Positions 3,427 to 49,617 of a stretch of 64,000 nt of DNA are shown here, piece by piece; within the stretch, counting starts at the first letter, position 1; each line of letters begins with the position of its first letter. The notes beneath the pieces were generated by a model. That model saw only the letters and a list, made by a program, of their open reading frames with translations, was not told where the DNA came from and made no database searches. Source of the DNA: a virus; the IMG/VR virus record IMGVR_UViG_3300045125_000085, positions 32,001 through 96,000 of that record. One strand, given 5' to 3'. Both the position numbers and the translations under genes were made by a program.

Positions 3427-4404
3427 TTACAAGATTAGGCCGTGCTCATTCAGCTCTTCATCGAGCTGGATGCGTTTGGTCACAGCACTGGTGACGTGCT
3501 CATCTATATCCTTGATGACCTTGGTCAAGCGTTCCAGTACGGATGGGAAGTATCCTGCTACTGTCACGATGTGGAGTGGCAGATCGACAGTGATAGCATC
3601 CTTGAGCTTATCATCGATATAACCAGTAGCTCTGTAACCGACTGGGATGCCGATGGATGCATCAGTTTGAGCGTCTGAGATCGACACAGCGGAGACTACG
3701 CTATGACCACGTGCTAACTCTACCGTCTTGGAGTAAAACTCCAGGTGGGTCAGCTGAGGATCTACAGCCGTCACTTTCTGATAGTTCAGGAAGTTAGACA
3801 GATCTGCACTATCCAACTCGTGATTCTGACCACTAAAGATAGCAGCCAGCAGTACGATGATGGTCTGGACCTTCTGGTCTACAGACCCTCTAGGAGTAGA
3901 GCTACTATTTTCATAGTAGACCATATTCACCGGCTTTTCGATCTTACGGGCAGTAGCCTCATAGCCCTTCAACGTCTTCGAGGTATTCTCTACCTCGATA
4001 CGACTATCAGTACTACCGATCGTAATGACGATAGTCTGCACATCCTTCTTCAGCAACTCACCTGCTATGATCGGTCCGATGACTGAGCCTGAGCCACCTG
4101 ATGCTGAATGTACAATTACATTCAAGTCACCAGGCTTATAGCGGTGTAAGATTTCCTTAGAGCGTTCAGCGATCGCACCTGCATTGCTGTCACGCTTCTT
4201 ACCACTACCGTCTCTATCTTCGATGAGGTATACTCGCTCATCGTTGATATCCAAGTTAGCCCGCTTAAAGTTACTAGCGGATGTATCTATAAAGACGGGT
4301 CTAAATGTAGCAAACCCGTCCGACGGTTTATCCGCATGCCGCATGAGCTGGCTGACGATGTTGATGCCTGCACCACCGGCTGCGTAAATATTCATTTGGT
4401 TCAT
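3427..4404 (-). CDS. phuZ: Phage tubulin PhuZ (tubulin/FtsZ GTPase)
   Basis: N-terminal AGGAGINI, FIDTS, DGSGKKR, tubulin signature SASGGSGS, acidic C-terminal tail ending GLIL; 325 aa. Confidence 0.93.
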   Translation of the reverse strand: MNQMNIYAAGGAGINIVSQLMRHADKPSDGFATFRPVFIDTSASNFKRANLDINDERVYLIEDRDGSGKKRDSNAGAIAERSKEILHRYKPGDLNVIVHSASGGSGSVIGPIIAGELLKKDVQTIVITIGSTDSRIEVENTSKTLKGYEATARKIEKPVNMVYYENSSSTPRGSVDQKVQTIIVLLAAIFSGQNHELDSADLSNFLNYQKVTAVDPQLTHLEFYSKTVELARGHSVVSAVSISDAQTDASIGIPVGYRATGYIDDKLKDAITVDLPLHIVTVAGYFPSVLERLTKVIKDIDEHVTSAVTKRIQLDEELNEHGLIL

Positions 4405-4421
4405 TAGTACTACCTCTTGTG

Positions 4422-4931
4422 TTAATCATTCAAAGTAAGCGGGCCTGATATAAACTCTTTGTAGCCCGAGATGTGAGATTCGACACGCTGTGCGTAGCGT
4501 GTCAGTTTGCGGCTGCGATAGCCTGTGTAACACTTCAATGTGTCTATACGCCTTACGGCTTTCTTCCTGCACTCAGTCAGCACTGTCGTACCGACCTGCA
4601 CTGCGGTATTGATGTTAAACAGATTACACTGTTTAACTTTACGGCAATGCAATCGTGGCATCACCTGCATTAAACCTAAAGCACCTTGTTTACTACGTGC
4701 ATTCGGTTTAAAGCTAGATTCCTCCTGCATGATACCTACGAGTAAGCTGACAGGAAGATGTTGTTCCTGGGCTTGCTCATGGATCACGTGAGCGATACGG
4801 CGTGCCTGAACGACAGACGCCTTCGAGTGTTGCATGATCCATCGCTCTGTCTTGACTGGACTAGCTGATGTAGTGCTAGCAAATAAAGTCATCGCGATGG
4901 CTAGTAGACCTTTCTTTGAGAAGATCGGCAT
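4422..4931 (-). CDS. Soluble lytic transglycosylase (SLT) with N-terminal signal peptide
   Basis: IMQEESSFKPNARS..GALGLMQV motifs; start at MPIFSKK (GGAGG RBS) followed by a hydrophobic segment and ASA site. Confidence 0.88.
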   Translation of the reverse strand: MPIFSKKGLLAIAMTLFASTTSASPVKTERWIMQHSKASVVQARRIAHVIHEQAQEQHLPVSLLVGIMQEESSFKPNARSKQGALGLMQVMPRLHCRKVKQCNLFNINTAVQVGTTVLTECRKKAVRRIDTLKCYTGYRSRKLTRYAQRVESHISGYKEFISGPLTLND

Positions 4932-5174
4932 ACTTTTCCTCCATAGGTAATTGAACACATTTAAGCTGCACAGGCAGCTTATAGGATTTTCAATCCTAGT
5001 AATAGGATCTTTGATCCTCAAAGAGCACTAGTGGCGTACGGGTCGGCTAAGCTCATGTTTAGTATATACGGCTAAAATACGCTCGACTCGTAGTCATTGA
5101 GATATAAACCGTACAGCAAAAAGAAAGAGCGCATAGAGGGAGTGGTATAGACCACTCCCTCTAGCTGTTAGCTG

Positions 5175-5667: not shown

Positions 5668-5759
5668 TTTATCCACCTCTATTAGTGATTATTACAAAGT
5701 TACTATCGGCTACATTAGCTTCGTATTGAAAGAGTACGTAGGCTAAGATCACCACTAGT

Positions 5760-6310
5760 ATTTATAACTATAATTAACTCCACTATAAGCTCTATCTAAT
5801 CTTTGCCTAGCACTCGCACTATCGTGCTCATGCACTGCGGCGATAGCTCTCTAGCTTTATTTAATCTCTATTGCACTCGACTACGTCTCATGCGCTGCGT
5901 TAATTGCTAATTTAACATTATCTACTAGCTTGTGTAAAAAATACTGGCACTACATATATTTTGACTGACTTAAATAGCAGGAGGGCGATGGAGTGACTGA
6001 ATAGGAACGAAGGAGACCGACACATACCTGGAAGCAATAGAGCTGCGTGCATATAGCTGACTGCCTACCTATACTAAAAGAAAAGAATAGATAAGCAATC
6101 TAGCCTCATACATACTAGCACTATCCACTACCAAACTAACAATAGATTAGGTACTATAGCTATCTGTTATACTACTCTATCTAGCACTACAGATGCGAAG
6201 CAGTATAAGTATTGGGGGCGTAGCCCCCACTAGTAGTACGATAAAAAAATAGATAAACTATATATCTTTATTAATAAAGATATATTCCTTTAAAGTAAAA
6301 ATAGCTAAGG
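5760..6310. other. AT-rich non-coding divergence region with mini-hairpins (candidate replication origin)
   Basis: No ORF of 60 aa or more; genes diverge; repeated GCACTCG..CTCATGC hairpins, TGCGAAGCA, GGGGGCGTAGCCCCC. Confidence 0.4.
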
Positions 6311-9775: not shown

Positions 9776-9805
9776 GAAAAAAGAGCACCGGTGAGGGTGC
9801 TCTTT
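9776..9805 (-). terminator. Canonical intrinsic terminator after the ring nuclease gene
   Basis: Minus strand AAGAGCACC-CTCACC-GGTGCTCTT followed by a T-tract. Confidence 0.8.
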
Positions 9806-9847: not shown

Positions 9848-10195
9848 CTATTTACTGGTTGTTACCAGGATGAAGCGGAACTCTGCGCCTTCCGGCAGTA
9901 CTGTGGTGCCCTCAGGAAGACGTGGCCCATTGTACTGGGCCACCAGGAGGATATCGTCATGTTCCAGCTTGATGTTGACCCGATTGCTCGGGATATTTGC
10001 ACCAAGCAGATTGCTCAAGATGACCGCAGTGTCGGGATGACCGACACCGCTAACGAAGCGACCATCTGCGATCTCTGCACCAACGATGCTAGCTGCATCG
10101 CTAGCATCGATGTCGCGGTACGACAGTGTACCGCCATCAAAGCTAGCAGAGATCATGGAGAAGGAAAATGCGTTGGCGATGTAGAACTTGCTCAT
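9848..10195 (-). CDS. acrIII-1: AcrIII-1 family viral ring nuclease (DUF1874, STIV B116-like)
   Basis: YIANAFSFSMI, FVSGVGHPDTA (GH), NRVNIKL (NR), RLPEG (R,E); 115 aa; GGAGG RBS. Confidence 0.85.
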   Translation of the reverse strand: MSKFYIANAFSFSMISASFDGGTLSYRDIDASDAASIVGAEIADGRFVSGVGHPDTAVILSNLLGANIPSNRVNIKLEHDDILLVAQYNGPRLPEGTTVLPEGAEFRFILVTTSK

Positions 10196-10310
10196 AGTTA
10201 CCTCCAAAGGGTAAAAGCTAAGCTATGTAGATAGAGCATATCCACATAGCTGGAAAGGGTGTAGTGATCTCAGCAGTAGGCTAAGATCATAAGTAATATG
10301 TATAGCTATA
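10196..10310 (-). promoter_or_regulatory. Early-type promoter plus structured 5' leader (copy A)
   Basis: TACATATTAC (cf. phiKZ early TATATTAC), then ATGATCTTAGCCTACTG hairpin, CACCCTTTCCAG linker, second hairpin, SD hairpin; second copy at 49467-49575. Confidence 0.7.
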
Positions 10311-10374
10311 TTTCTTTTCAATCCAAGTTTAAAGCTATACGGCATATCGGGCAGAATGATCTGCCCGATAGTAG

Positions 10375-20139: not shown

Positions 20140-22221
20140 ATGGCATCTATATATCTCATCAATGCCGCACCCATGGTGCAGCAACTGGGTACTCGGGATT
20201 TGAGTACCGTCCAGGTCCCACGTGAGCCCGAACAATATGCGCAGCATTTACCGAAATGCTTTCTGTTTGCCCAATCAGGACCGTTGACGCCTCAACTCGT
20301 ATCCGGTGCTGAAGCAGAACGCATGTACGGTACCAAGACGTTTGATCTGCGTAGCAAATTCGCTACTCATCAAACCGTCTTTACCAAGCTCATGTTTGCA
20401 GAAGATAACAACGTCATGGTCCAACGTGTCATCTCTGATGATGCGGGTCCTGAAGCGAATGTTTTGCTGTCCTTAGACGTACTGCCGACTAAAGTCGATT
20501 TGTACGAACGTGATCCGTCTGGCTTGATCAAGCTGGATGCGATGGGTGCACCGATTAAGAAAGGGACTGCAGATGGCTTTAAAGTCATGTGGGTCACTAG
20601 CCATATCAGCAATAAAGCTAATATCGGTAACTTCGGTCAAGCCGCAGTAGTCGCTGGCTCACAGACTGATCCAGTCTCAGGTGCTCAGTCACAGCGCTAT
20701 CCTATCTTTGAATTTAAAGCTTCATTCTTAGGTGAATCTGGCAATGACGGTGGTCTGCGTATCTGGGCTCCTACGCTCGATACTGAAGCCAATATGCCGA
20801 CTGCCATGATGGCTAAGGAACGTGCTTATCCTTATTATGTCAGTATGATCCGTAGGCCGGATTCGTCCAGCTCACCGAAAGTCGTGCAGACCCAGATGGG
20901 TGATCAGTACGTCTCAGTAGTGCTGAAAGAAGGCGTGATCGATCCGATTACTGATCGTGAAATGTTCATGGGCGATATCCTGCTGAACAACTATCAGAAC
21001 GTCACTGATCCTGCTTATCCGAAAGTATTCGGTGACTTCAGCACGATGGCGATCTATGAAGAAAACCTGGCTGAGCTTGCTGGAACAGTTCCATGCGGCT
21101 GAAACGCCGTATATCGATCTGTTCTCAGACTTCACTAGCGATATTGGCAGACATCCATCTGTTCAACATCATTTCAGGCGTATCTAGCCAGAACGTACCT
21201 TACCATACTTTCCAGTTGGTAGATGGTGCTGGTAGCATTCGTCCGACTCAGTTCTCTAACATCTTTGCAGCTGGTGGCAGCGATGGCACCATCAGCAATG
21301 CCGTGTTAGGTGACTTAGTCAAGAACTACATGCTGGGCTACTTAGATCCGAATAGCGAACTGCAAGAACTGGCTCTGAACATCGAATCCATTATCTACGA
21401 TACTGGCTTCCCGTTACAGACTAAGTATGCCCTGGCTAATATCATCGGTCTGCGTAAAGATACCTTCGTAGTATTGGGTACTTACGATGTCGATGGTCCG
21501 GTCATGACGCAGTCAGAAGAACATTCTGTCGCTGTAGCGCTGCGTACTCGTCTGCAGATGTTCCCTGAATCTGATTACTTCGGTACGCCGGTCATGCGTG
21601 GCATGATCGTAGGTCGCAGTGGTACTTTACGGAATAGCCAGTATAAAGGCAGACTGCCGTTGACGTTTGAAGTAGGTATCAAAGCTGCACGCTACATGGG
21701 TGCTGGTGATGGTCGCTGGAAGAACGGTCGTAACTTTGATGGTGCGCCTGGATCAGTCGTAGAAAACATGACTGATATCTCGATCACTTGGGTGCCGACG
21801 ACTGTACGTAACAAGAATTGGAGCGTAGGTCTGAACTGGGTACAAGCGTTTGATCGTCGTAGCTTCTTCTTCCCTGCGTTGAAGACTGTATACAACGATG
21901 ATATGTCTGTACTGAACAGCTTCATTACGGCTATGGCTATCTGTACTTTGAACAAGGTCACTGCAGCCGCATGGCGTCAGTTCTCTGGCGTATCTGGTAT
22001 CAGCAATGGCTTGTTGATTGATCGCACTAATGCTTTCATTAAGTCACAGACCCAGGGTCGTTTTGATGAGTCGCTTTGTGATTGAACCGGCTGCCTTCTT
22101 CACCGATACCGATGTACTGAATGGCTTTAGCTGGACAGTCCCAGTCAAGATCTATGCTAACAACATGAAGACTGTAATGACTTCTTATGTTGAAGCTTAT
22201 CGTGCCGGTGGTACGGCTTAA
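20140..22221 (+). CDS. Tail sheath protein (phiKZ gp29-like), two indels
   Basis: INAAP..GTRDLS start, SIIYDTGFPLQTK, FPESDYFGTP, KIYANNMKT C-terminus; about 690 codons. Confidence 0.88.
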
Positions 22222-32259: not shown

Positions 32260-32668
32260 CCCAATGTCCACGTCTATCCTAGACGCCGGTGCGCAATGAC
32301 ACCCGCCCTGAGTTTCTTCAGGGGGCAGACTATCTCATTACCCTCGCCTCTTCTTGTGGAATAGCGGTCGGGTACTTCCCATTTCGACGCACACTCCTAG
32401 TGCTGTCTACGCCTTGCTGAAGGGCTAGTCGTTGAGCCTACCTCATGCCCTTTTGGGGTTTAGAGGCTTCGCTGCGTGGTTGCCCAATCCTAACCATGCC
32501 GTAATACGACAGGGACTTTTTGACCCGTCACGCTCGCCTTTCAGGCCACGTTGTGGGGGGTTAGGCTCTAAGGGTATTCCCGCAATTAGGAAGGCACTCA
32601 TCTCAGTTTACACCGAGAGAGGGACAATAGTAAGAAAATATGCTACATCATATTAAGCTTACTCTAGT
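32260..32668 (-). ncRNA. Group I self-splicing intron (IA-like), 409 nt, no ORF
   Basis: 5' exon ends in U, intron ends in G; P AATTGCGGGAA, Q-like GGCAACCACGCAGC, R GGCTCAACGACTA, S GAGATAGTC; P9 hairpin; splicing restores DCDFDGD. Confidence 0.9.
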
Positions 32669-34114
32669 ATCGCAGTCAAGACGGCTTAAATGAGGGAGAG
32701 CAGGTGACATAGCGTTTACCCCACCTTCACCCCGTATAGGAAACTCAGGAGCTACTACCTCAGTCTTTTCCCAGCTACTGTCTAATAAGTAGCGTACCTC
32801 AGTCCTCGCTGTCGCTTTGACATGTGGGTAACTCGGGTAGATGCTACCAAACCCAGTAACAGGATAACGCGTCACGTAGCCTGGTAAAGTCGGTGCTCGT
32901 TGAAAGACCGAGATATACAGTAACTCACAAAAGCTCACAGGACGTACATCAGCTCGATTACGCTCAGGTGGTAGTTCATCTATATCTTGGAATAACCTAA
33001 ACGTACCATCTGGCCCAGTATATAAAAGACCAAAATAGCCTTCAGGTAATTCGAGCACATTATGTCTAAGCTCTTCCTCACCAAAGCGATTCAAGACTTT
33101 CTGTAAGCCTTCGTTAGTCATCCACTCATCGTAGACATAACTAGCGACATCTACCCATTTCGGCTTTAAGGTCTTTTTATCGACTAAGACAGCCGGTGAG
33201 TTAGGTCCTTGAAACACTTGACTTAGAAAGCCATTCCTGATATCAAAGAAGACTATAGGTAAAGCACTCTTAAGAAACTGATAGAGTCCTATCACTGACT
33301 GATTAGGATCTAGCAATCTAGGTGAGTCTAAGCTATCGACTTTCTGGATCAGTGCGGTAGCTACATTACGCGTACTGTTAAAGATCTTGCGTGAAGCCCA
33401 CTTACCTAAGATCATTTTACCTTTGCCTTCCATCATCCCTCTAAAGTAATCGTAGATTTCTATAAAGGTCTCTTGCATCTGGTAGCGTACGACATCCATA
33501 GACTCAGGATTATTCTTCAAAGCAGCCGGATCTATCATACCGGCTAAGGAGATCATGCGTTTATATGGCTTATTGATCTCACCTTCTGAAGGTTTACCAT
33601 CTTCATCATACTCGTAGTCTCTTAAACCTGCCGGCAAGATGATTAGCTTATCGATCAGAGGTTGTTCCCTATACTTCTCCACTAGCTTAATGTTAAACTG
33701 TCTAAGTGGACTAGCTCTAGTCTCGAACACGAGCTCACCAAAATGCTCTAAGAAGAAAGTATAGCCTGTACGACCCTCCATAGGCGTAGACTTAATAAAG
33801 TCTCTATTCGTAGCATCCCAGAGAGCATAGCCTTTACCTGAAATAATATCTGCATACAGCTGCTTTAATTCCTTAATGGCTTTAAACAGTACGGGATGCA
33901 GTAGTCCTATATTTAAGCGTACGTAGGAGAAAGTACGGTTACGGCGCTCATCGCCGACTTTACCAAAGATCTCAGTGCTGAATAAGCCGTTAGCTCTATA
34001 GGTACGAGTAGACGGCTCGAAAGTATCGATCGTGGTGACTGGCGGGATACTGCGCACCATCTCCTCAGTCGGTATGAGGATATTGATATTAAAAGGTAGC
34101 ATGTTTACTGACAT
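32669..34114 (-). CDS. Virion RNA polymerase beta'-like subunit (phiKZ gp180-like), exon 1
   Basis: GLFSTEIFG, ILPAGLRD, KWASRKIFNSTRNV, TRYPV; ends ..HLSRLDCD at the intron. Confidence 0.9.
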
Positions 34115-34155
34115 AGTAGCCCTCAAATCGTTTGAATTATTTAGGAGTTTGTATC

Positions 34156-48911: not shown

Positions 48912-49056
48912 AGCTACCTCGATAAAAAAAAACATCACAGCATTAAGCAAAAAATAATCCACATCCTAGAGGAGCCCGTAAGCCCCTCCAAGATGCAGAC
49001 TATTTAGAGCTTACTTATCAGCGAGATCGCCGTAAAAGCTCTAGTTGTCTCGGCCG

Positions 49057-49466
49057 TCAAGGCCGTAAAATCCTCCACATATTTCTCGTCAAATATGTGG
49101 TAACGTCTTCCTTACGACTTAAGCCATCCTTGGCCATACGGCGATCCAGCTTCCATGCCAGACGGAAGATTTTCATCCATGAGGTCAAACCGCTCTGCAG
49201 TTTGCTAAAGAAACGGTAGCAAGATTCATGGTGCCAAACCATGAATTTGATATACCGATTCACCGCATGTACTACAGATGACTTGATGCTGTCTGCTGCG
49301 GCATCTATCTCACGGCATTTTGCCAGTACTTTCATACCTTCTACGGTACTGGTCAAGCTGTCCTTTTTGCCGGTTTTCCATCCAAGCATGAATGCATCCC
49401 GCATTGCTTTACAACCATGATTACGAAAATGAAGACCTTGCGAACGAAAGCGAAGAAACTGTTCAT
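49057..49466 (-). CDS. Hypothetical basic protein behind leader copy B
   Basis: Start probably MNSFFAFVRKVFIFVIMVV (AGGAGG RBS), one indel joining ORF 49057-49473; end uncertain. Confidence 0.6.
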
Positions 49467-49575
49467 AGCACACCTCCTAAGGTATGGTAATAAGTCCATA
49501 CAGCTGAACGACCGTATAGACTGGAAAGGGTGAATGATCTAGCCACCAGTAGGCTAAGATCATCTTTAATATATG
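49467..49575 (-). promoter_or_regulatory. Early-type promoter plus structured 5' leader (copy B)
   Basis: CATATATTAAAG then ATGATCTTAGCCTACTG hairpin, CACCCTTTCCAG, second hairpin, SD hairpin. Confidence 0.7.
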
Positions 49576-49617
49576 GGATTATGTTTTTCTGCACTTTAAA
49601 CTAGAGCTTTAGCTAGT

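Follow-up and report, generated by a model that had tools for sequence, protein, structure and literature searches.

In the 5′-terminal stem-loop stabilisers of mRNAs, of which the Escherichia coli ompA leader is an example, a hairpin located 0–2 nt from the 5′-end blocks 5′-end-dependent decay (RppH, RNase E); stabilisers of the ompA type were reportedly described by Emory, Bouvet and Belasco in 1992. Operator hairpins, in which a conserved loop is carried on a variable stem, include lambda boxB/N, the MS2/PP7 coat-protein operators and the T4 RegA/RegB targets. The element compared with these and other systems here is a structured 5′ leader of ~93 bases, two copies of which (A, positions 10290→10196, and B, positions 49563→49467, both on the minus strand) lie in a 64,000-nt stretch of viral DNA, hereafter the window, corresponding to bases 32001–96000 of the 144,006-bp IMG/VR virus record IMGVR_UViG_3300045125_000085 (~49% complete by estimate; GC content 45.7%). 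Because this record encodes the PhuZ tubulin, a multisubunit RNA polymerase (RNAP) β subunit and phiKZ-like structural proteins, its source is identified on gene content as a Chimalliviridae-like (nucleus-forming) jumbo phage; its closest GenBank relatives are only ~45% identical in RNAP β (Ralstonia phage RP12). Comparison of the sequences indicates that the element is a real, selected and previously undescribed structured leader family on early genes of one chimallivirus lineage, and the probability that this family acts in cis as a functional early leader is put at about 0.8.

The promoter-early stem-loops (PeSLs) of T4-type phages consist of an early promoter, a stem-loop, a Shine-Dalgarno (SD) sequence and a start codon placed before ORFan accessory genes; their promoters are sigma-70-like, and their stem-loops, which lie between or over the −35 and −10 boxes, are terminators of upstream transcription (PMC2839356; PMC4122927). 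The leader resembles a PeSL in being a repeated composite intergenic cassette that precedes unrelated ORFan genes and shows signs of recombination between copies. It differs from a PeSL in that its promoter motif is phiKZ-like and is not flagged by a sigma-70 scan, in that the predicted start is followed by all three hairpins, two of which show covariation at the RNA level, and in possessing both an invariant 5′ tag and a conserved loop, which PeSLs lack. The genes preceding the leaders are closed by separate terminator-like hairpins, not by the leader hairpins.

The early promoters of phiKZ and 201phi2-1 contain an AT-rich extended −10 box and a T-rich block upstream of approximately −19, with conservation near −10, −20 and −30 (PMC8244752; PMC11512511). 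The leaders are likewise preceded by an extended −10-like box and by blocks near −20 (T-rich) and −30 and, as in those phages, dozens of such sites per genome precede small hypothetical genes in a genome encoding multisubunit RNAPs and PhuZ (PMC8244752; PMC11512511; PMC10914365). The 5′ untranslated regions (UTRs) of phiKZ are mostly 31–40 nt long and none of these papers on phiKZ-like transcriptomes describes a shared structured leader (PMC8244752; PMC11512511; PMC10914365), whereas the family leaders are 90–95 nt long and have a conserved architecture. The leaders also resemble the 5′ UTR-derived small RNAs (sRNAs) of 201phi2-1 in being structured RNA between a phage promoter and a start codon that is conserved among relatives; those sRNAs, however, arise by premature termination at single syntenic loci (PMC11512511), whereas eight paralogues with no consistent terminator tail are found in this one genome.

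Copies, folds and promoter context of the leader family

The original prediction, made from the letters of the window, described copies A and B as a pair of three-hairpin leaders with an identical start and linker, and the features that it listed were recovered: the 17-mer ATGATCTTAGCCTACTG and the 12-mer linker CACCCTTTCCAG are the same in A and B, the 3′ arms of the first stem differ (GCTGAGATCA in A, GGCTAGATCAT in B) with pairing kept, the arms of the second stem differ with pairing retained, and a short hairpin covers the 3′ part of the SD sequence. The two copies are not simply a pair, however, since a search of the full 144-kb record with a covariance model built from five copies (R1) identified eight full copies (E 1e-19 to 1e-6). 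Exact matches to the sequence GATCTTAGCCTAC number eight in the record, always on the minus strand, and when up to 3 mismatches are tolerated ATGATCTTAGCCTACTG is found 3 times where 0.20 matches would be expected. Each family leader comprises an invariant 5′ tag and three hairpins.

In copy A, hairpin 1 (10266–10288, minus strand) has a 9-bp stem with one U·G pair and a loop of the CCUACU type, and the predicted transcription start (+1) is the G at 10288; the first 15 nt of the hairpin constitute the invariant tag, GAUCUUAGCCUACUG. A single-stranded, pyrimidine-rich linker containing CACCCUUUCC (10252–10265) leads to hairpin 2 (10221–10251), which has a 13-bp stem and the loop UGCUC, and then to hairpin 3 (10198–10214), in which UUACC pairs with GGUAA such that the GGA of the SD sequence GGAGG lies in the loop and its last two G residues are paired. 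In copy B (49467–49563, minus strand; predicted +1 at 49561), hairpin 1 (49536–49561) has a variant 3′ arm with a bulged U, and is followed by the linker (49523–49535), hairpin 2 (49493–49522; loop UCGUUCAG) and hairpin 3 (49469–49486). The linker is U/C-rich in all eight copies.

Minimum free energy folding gave three hairpins in A (z = −5.7) and B (z = −4.1), with none of 200 shuffles folding as well, and each of the eight copies folded alone into three hairpins with z values from −2.1 to −7.0. In the structure-fitted alignment A4, 91% of cells are paired, compared with 30–39% when the partners are slid by 1–3 columns; changes on both sides occur in 14 of 28 pairs, and none of 500 shuffles reaches any of five measures. 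The main share of this signal comes from hairpin 2, in which 10 of 12 pairs show compensatory changes, and compensatory double changes are also found in four of the seven pairs of hairpin 3. The proposal of a functional RNA whose structure is kept despite sequence change thus stands for hairpins 2 and 3; in hairpin 1, which is without double changes, it is supported by two different 3′ arms that both pair. In six of the eight copies the sense strand is more stable than the antisense strand, by 3–13 kcal/mol, and this bias, which is expected from U·G pairs, argues for structure selected in RNA rather than for a DNA cruciform. RNAalifold also proposed pairing between the hairpin-1 loop and the SD sequence, in columns that are invariant.

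Each of the eight copies lies directly behind a phiKZ-type early-promoter motif. A 38-nt position weight matrix (PWM) made from 13 upstream regions and applied with a cut-off of 12 bits identified ~25 sites in the record, exclusively on the minus strand, and sites of the same type are also present in related contigs. Counted from the G of GATC, the motif consists of GTGCAG (at −33 to −28) or TTGAAA near −30, a T/A run at −26 to −22, and CATAT(A/T)(C/G/T)T at −14 to −7. The element preceding copy A (10291–10335, minus strand; 36.6 bits) contains TTGGATTGAAAAG, an A/T-rich stretch and CATATT at −12 to −7, and that preceding copy B (49564–49608, minus strand; 37.6 bits) contains AAGTGCAGA and CCCATATATT; a sigma-70 consensus scan flagged no minus-strand site upstream of A or B. 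At the level of sequence, the motif agrees with the published early promoters of phiKZ and 201phi2-1, and the spacing from its −10 box places the putative +1 at the G of GATC. Initiation at the G of a TATG motif is likewise a feature of the phiKZ polymerases, and TATGATC is read in four copies. The element is therefore located exactly where an early transcript should begin if the start is correctly inferred, in keeping with its description as a 5′ leader, with the correction that the first two bases (AU) of the shared 17-nt start are most likely upstream of +1. A leaderless mini-ORF (open reading frame) starting at the AUG of AUGAUC was considered and rejected, being of inconsistent length (6, 25 or 28 codons) and having its AU upstream of the start according to the promoter geometry.

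As had been supposed, the leader belongs to no described family: no Rfam 15 model matches it (best E 0.17; 17.7 bits against a threshold of 50), and the only model above threshold across the whole window, RF00028 (group I intron), is located away from the leader. An exact 14-mer gave 22 single matches in IMG/VR, none in leader context, a 24-base gapped pattern gave no match in JGI metagenomes, megablast and blastn searches of GenBank phages returned nothing beyond chance (E 0.5), and R1 gave no match on the two nearest IMG/VR records. Searches for relatives anchored on PhuZ returned short contigs only, and a search anchored on the AcrIII-1-family protein encoded behind copy A found no homologue above 52% identity and hence no orthologous copy of that leader.

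The 5′-flush hairpin and its invariant tag

Pairwise identity among the copies is 93% over the tag (+1 to +15), against 56% in the promoter, 56% in the linker, ~50% in the hairpin-2 arms and 39% in the spacer. Because this identity is a short 15-nt island between diverged flanks, gene conversion is unlikely to be its cause, and selection on the tag sequence fits better; the tag could be read by the polymerase on DNA or by a factor on RNA. No tag-complementary target with ≤2 mismatches was found on either strand of the 144 kb outside coding chance matches. A third tag-bearing early leader in the window (5668–5797, minus strand) has a promoter and GAUCUUAGCCUAC, lacks the 3′ arm of hairpin 1 as well as hairpin 2, and folds with z = +0.85; the 13-mer of the tag is retained in this leader, at window position 5750, and in its orthologue L044:87, at both sites without a hairpin partner.

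With the G of GATC as +1, hairpin 1 starts on the very first base of the transcript, and in all eight family leaders the first paired base is +1. A flush hairpin, defined by a first paired base within +3 and a ΔG of −5 or lower, is also present in 20 of 27 non-family early leaders from this phage and from related contigs with PhuZ 82–94% identical, compared with 37% of control GANC sites (p 1.4e-4). The stems of the non-family leaders are unrelated in sequence (GAGCA/UGCUC, GACCGA/UCGGUC, GCUAC/GUAGC and others), and among 28 such leaders good conservation is confined to +1 G, +2 A and +4 C, positions beyond +7 being unconserved. Because 20 of the 27 carry unrelated flush stems, hairpin 1 is, according to these predicted folds, one version of a flush 5′ hairpin common to the lineage, and the 15-nt sequence is specific to the family. 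Hairpin 1 is similar to an ompA-type stabiliser in lying within ~2 nt of the predicted 5′-end, as counted from the putative start, but its 5′ arm is invariant in sequence, and a pure stabiliser needs no such arm.

An orthologous gene, with the start ATGGCCATTAAA in both genomes, has leaders at genome position 25073 of this phage (G000) and at position 32010 of the relative G002 that begin with 5′ hairpins differing by one compensatory pair (GAACC/GGUUC versus GACCC/GGGUC).

The hairpin 2/3 module before start codons

The U-rich linker, hairpin 2 and the SD hairpin are also found together without hairpin 1. Modules of this kind lie behind other early promoters at window position 150 and at genome positions 118479 and 31102, and three more, associated with the ATGs at genome positions 143263, 132683 and 132405, are positioned downstream of the first gene behind family leaders, before internal cistrons, where the PWM detects no early promoter of their own. 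A second covariance model (R2) identified 16 modules, 14 of which are in this phage and two in L043, a relative with 94% identical PhuZ, whose orthologues show further compensatory stem changes and keep the hairpin-2 loop. When R2 was applied to all relatives, the hairpin-2 module was found in L043 only, on two other leaders; more distant relatives (PhuZ 89% and below) have the flush 5′ hairpin only, with no hairpin-2 module detected by R2. Because the module recurs at a fixed distance before each start codon, this repetition argues for a function in translation initiation or cistron-level stability, and not for one in antitermination or in the initiation of transcription. A general search for hairpins preceding SD-ATG combinations proved too noisy for direct use.

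In the predicted ensembles, SD bases 4–5 are paired and GGA is exposed in six of the eight copies, and the unpaired probability of bases 4–5 is ≤0.10 in seven of the eight. Hairpin 3 is thus predicted to hold part of the SD sequence in a conserved, covarying local structure, as would an SD-occluding operator. Pairing of the linker with GGAGG, which had also been proposed, is predicted to dominate in only one of the eight copies, where the linker reads CCUCCU, and the linker was consequently rejected as a general anti-SD switch. Hairpin 2 is also an unlikely intrinsic terminator, a T-rich tail being present in copy A only.

In copy A, the hairpin-2 loop UGCUC is complementary to GAGCA within AUGAGCA at the start codon. 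Complementarity of the loop to codon 2 and the preceding U and G of the AUG is found in 15 of the 16 modules, in the combinations UGCUC(R) with (U)GAGCA, GUUCA with UGAAC and CACA with UGUG, and 79% of cells are paired compared with 20–43% when slid. These predictions are suggestive of a pseudoknot between the hairpin-2 loop and the start codon, a proposal that is made tentatively. Like the loop-conserving operators, hairpin 2 keeps its loop while the stem covaries, at a fixed distance upstream of the SD sequence and start of each regulated cistron, and the leader, as T4 RegB substrates do, presents GGAG in a loop; the hairpin-2 loop sequences are, however, unrelated to boxB, MS2/PP7 and the RegA/RegB targets, which lack the complementarity to the start codon region that this loop has.

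A related early leader at 37–188 of the window (minus strand) has a 42.5-bit promoter, a different 5′ hairpin, a hairpin 2 (loop CUGCUCGG), an SD hairpin and AUGAGC; its orthologue, L043:4363, has compensatory changes in hairpin 2. Two orthologues of the leader at window position 150, G002 37918 and L046:9468, keep a multi-hairpin layout with unrelated hairpin sequences (three hairpins in the G002 37918 fold); neither has a clear GGAGG before the AUG, and the start is preceded by a hairpin whose loop contains a long U-run.

Cassettes, competing explanations and genomic setting

The leaders precede at least eight unrelated small genes. The gene behind copy A (9848–10195, minus strand) encodes a 115-aa protein that matches Pfam PF08960 (STIV B116-like / DUF1874; E 9.2e-12, 45.4 bits, cut-off 26 bits), and 71 homologues, nearly all with PF08960 and the best 52% identical, were found among 5.8e9 proteins; by sequence, it is a member of the AcrIII-1 (anti-CRISPR ring nuclease) family. 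The gene behind copy B (49057–49466, minus strand) matches no Pfam or PHROG family; its ATG frame is open for 37 codons, and a different frame starting at the same place is open for 135 aa. Each of the cassettes A and B is monocistronic and ends in its own terminator-like hairpin followed by a T-run (9780–9805 in A; 48956–49001, with a 20-bp hairpin, in B; both on the minus strand). The remaining cargo consists of ORFans and two weak HExxH protease-like proteins, which are encoded at L013:1033–1500 and L010:11757–12248 (both minus strand) and have weak matches to Peptidase_M78 (IrrE-like) and Peptidase_M48. The original prediction of a cis-regulatory leader for early counter-defence mRNAs is accordingly borne out in part: the element is recurrent, structure-conserving and promoter-proximal, and a putative counter-defence product is encoded behind copy A, but the other cargo is ORFan or weakly protease-like.

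The segments of different copies have different nearest neighbours, so that g133149 combines an A-type promoter with a B-type hairpin 1 and the hairpin 2 of B is of the g1976 type. The interval containing cassette A is 2.8 kb long in this phage and 1.1 kb long at the syntenic place in G002, where neither an R1 match nor an early-promoter match was found. On this sequence evidence, recombination between the cassettes seems to occur, and their cargo seems to be exchangeable. At several leaders, the SD-proximal ATG opens only 7–37 codons and a long ORF runs from the same place in another frame; these sites are at genome positions 117481, 81466 (window position 49466), 132405 and 1883, on the minus strand, in L012, the window and L009. 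At 117481, an A-run (AGCAAAAGTG) accounts for the frame shift relative to the paralogue at 143263. The short ATG frames are likely to be homopolymer errors or short upstream ORFs left by cassette insertion.

The preferred reading is that the element would be transcribed as the 5′ leader of a modular cassette for early-gene expression, whose phiKZ-type early promoter would presumably be read by the injected virion RNAP from the G of GATC. Hairpin 1, flush with the RNA 5′-end, would protect against 5′-end-dependent decay, and its near-invariant 15-nt 5′ arm would be a sequence-specific mark for some reader. The U/C-rich single-stranded linker may be a landing site for the ribosome or S1 (a standby region) and, together with hairpin 2, with its long covarying stem and conserved loop (UGCUC or GUUCA), and hairpin 3, which would pair the last two G residues of GGAGG and display GGA in its loop, it could form a translation-initiation operator that sets or times the translation of early accessory genes, either through pairing of the hairpin-2 loop with the start codon region (a pseudoknot) or through binding of a phage or host protein. 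This specific combination of end protection plus tag, standby region and translational operator, every functional step of which is inferred, is at best somewhat favoured. It is rather unlikely that the eight leaders constitute a post-transcriptional regulon, with a 5′ RNA tag read by a dedicated phage factor and a switchable loop/start pseudoknot operator, and one would similarly hesitate to see in them a tag for early mRNAs leaving the injection vesicle or for timed shut-off, within a portable plug-in cassette that co-regulates and exchanges accessory or anti-defence genes.

Several points weigh against the preferred reading. The start site, the polymerase and the early timing are assigned by analogy, and probable indel errors in the assembly make single-base details unsafe, including the AUGAAC start of copy B, which may itself be affected by an indel. 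The full copies all come from one genome, so that covariation is measured among paralogues that possibly recombine, and both alignments, A4 and A6, were made to fit the model structure. The lack of double changes in hairpin 1 follows from its unvarying 5′ arm, and the pairing of this hairpin is seen only in two alternative 3′ arms, GCUGAGAUC and, with a bulged U, GGCUAGAUC; the copy at window position 5750 retains the tag and lacks hairpin 1, so that the tag could be an initially transcribed promoter element acting at the DNA level. As for the loop-start pairing, double changes occur in two of six pairs, only three cells covary and the pairing is carried mainly by two conserved motifs; 12 of 500 shuffles reach the observed percentage of paired cells and 17 of 500 the covariation score. 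Full pairing puts steric strain on a loop of 5 nt, and the module at the ATG at genome position 143263 combines a UGCUC loop with the start AUGAAA.

The tag might instead be an initially transcribed promoter element, with +1 to +15 read as DNA by the virion polymerase to govern promoter strength or escape and the hairpins being generic mRNA structure. Its retention at window position 5750 and at L044:87 without a hairpin partner and the conservation of +1 G, +2 A and +4 C in non-family leaders agree with this idea, but those leaders are unconserved beyond +7, so +8 to +15 are no general promoter requirement, and the covariation of hairpins 2 and 3 is left unexplained; the idea is considered quite improbable. 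Highly improbable is a processive antitermination site of the nut or put type, at which hairpin 2, in the manner of lambda boxB, or hairpins 1 and 2 together, in the manner of HK022 put, would modify the elongating phage polymerase. The promoter-proximal position, the conserved loop on covarying stems and the conserved linear tag upstream, which recalls the boxA-plus-boxB layout generally known from lambda and HK022, are all compatible with such a site. In lambda nut and HK022 put, however, a single promoter-proximal site per operon acts on the polymerase so that terminators are passed, whereas cassettes A and B each hold one gene followed at once by a terminator-like hairpin, and the hairpin 2/3 module stands before each internal start at a fixed SD spacing, which fits translation and not a once-per-transcript change of the polymerase.

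A cassette that recombines at the DNA level only, with promoter-proximal homology blocks like those of T4 PeSLs and with incidental RNA folds, would account for the mosaic neighbours among the eight copies, the unrelated ORFan cargo and the difference of the cassette A interval between G000 and G002, and has a precedent in the PeSLs themselves (PMC2839356; PMC4122927). It leaves unexplained the 10 compensatory pairs of hairpin 2, the excess of pairing in A4 over the slid controls, the sense-strand bias and the module before internal cistrons, and the 15-nt identity between diverged flanks is too short for efficient homologous exchange; recombination alone is thus distinctly unlikely to be the explanation. 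There is also a slim chance that the leader is the source of a 5′ UTR-derived sRNA or an attenuator, in which transcription would stop after hairpin 2 to give a trans-acting RNA of ~70 nt or would be subject to regulated read-through: eight of the 11 sRNAs of 201phi2-1 come from premature termination in 5′ UTRs (PMC11512511), a loose scan marks hairpin 2 of copy A as terminator-like, and the invariant tag could serve as a seed. However, the other seven copies lack the T-rich tail, hairpin 2 is also present between cistrons inside operons, and the search of the 144 kb yielded no complementary target for the tag.

In nucleus-forming jumbo phages the first genes are transcribed by an injected polymerase, and the resulting mRNAs have to withstand a hostile cytoplasm and be translated there. 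On how these early mRNAs are treated, a shared, covarying, tagged leader offers a concrete, mutable entry point to three questions, namely protection of the 5′-end, the timing of translation and the possible binding of a factor; one leader-bearing message encodes a putative anti-CRISPR ring nuclease of the AcrIII-1 family. The family would also mean that PeSL-analogous regulatory cassettes occur in a family of phages that transcribe without the host polymerase, and the compact natural promoter-leader-terminator cassette is a possible expression part for engineering such phages.

Elsewhere in the window, the group I intron (RF00028; 59.8 bits) lies at 32306–32641 (minus strand), directly 3′ of an RNAP β-like ORF (32648–34126), and the RNAP β-like gene appears to be interrupted. 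The tail sheath (phrog_3242) is encoded in two overlapping ORFs at 20140–21102 and 21093–22085 (plus strand), which cover profile positions 6–314 and 331–641; this reflects either an assembly frameshift or a true split. The PhuZ tubulin (phrog_4733) and an SLT lytic transglycosylase (PF01464) are encoded in an operon at 3427–5021 (minus strand) with an early-type promoter at 5054; its promoter and 123-nt leader, which begins with GAGCUUAGCC, occupy 4932–5101 (minus strand), and the operon arrangement is kept in five related contigs (L044–L048).

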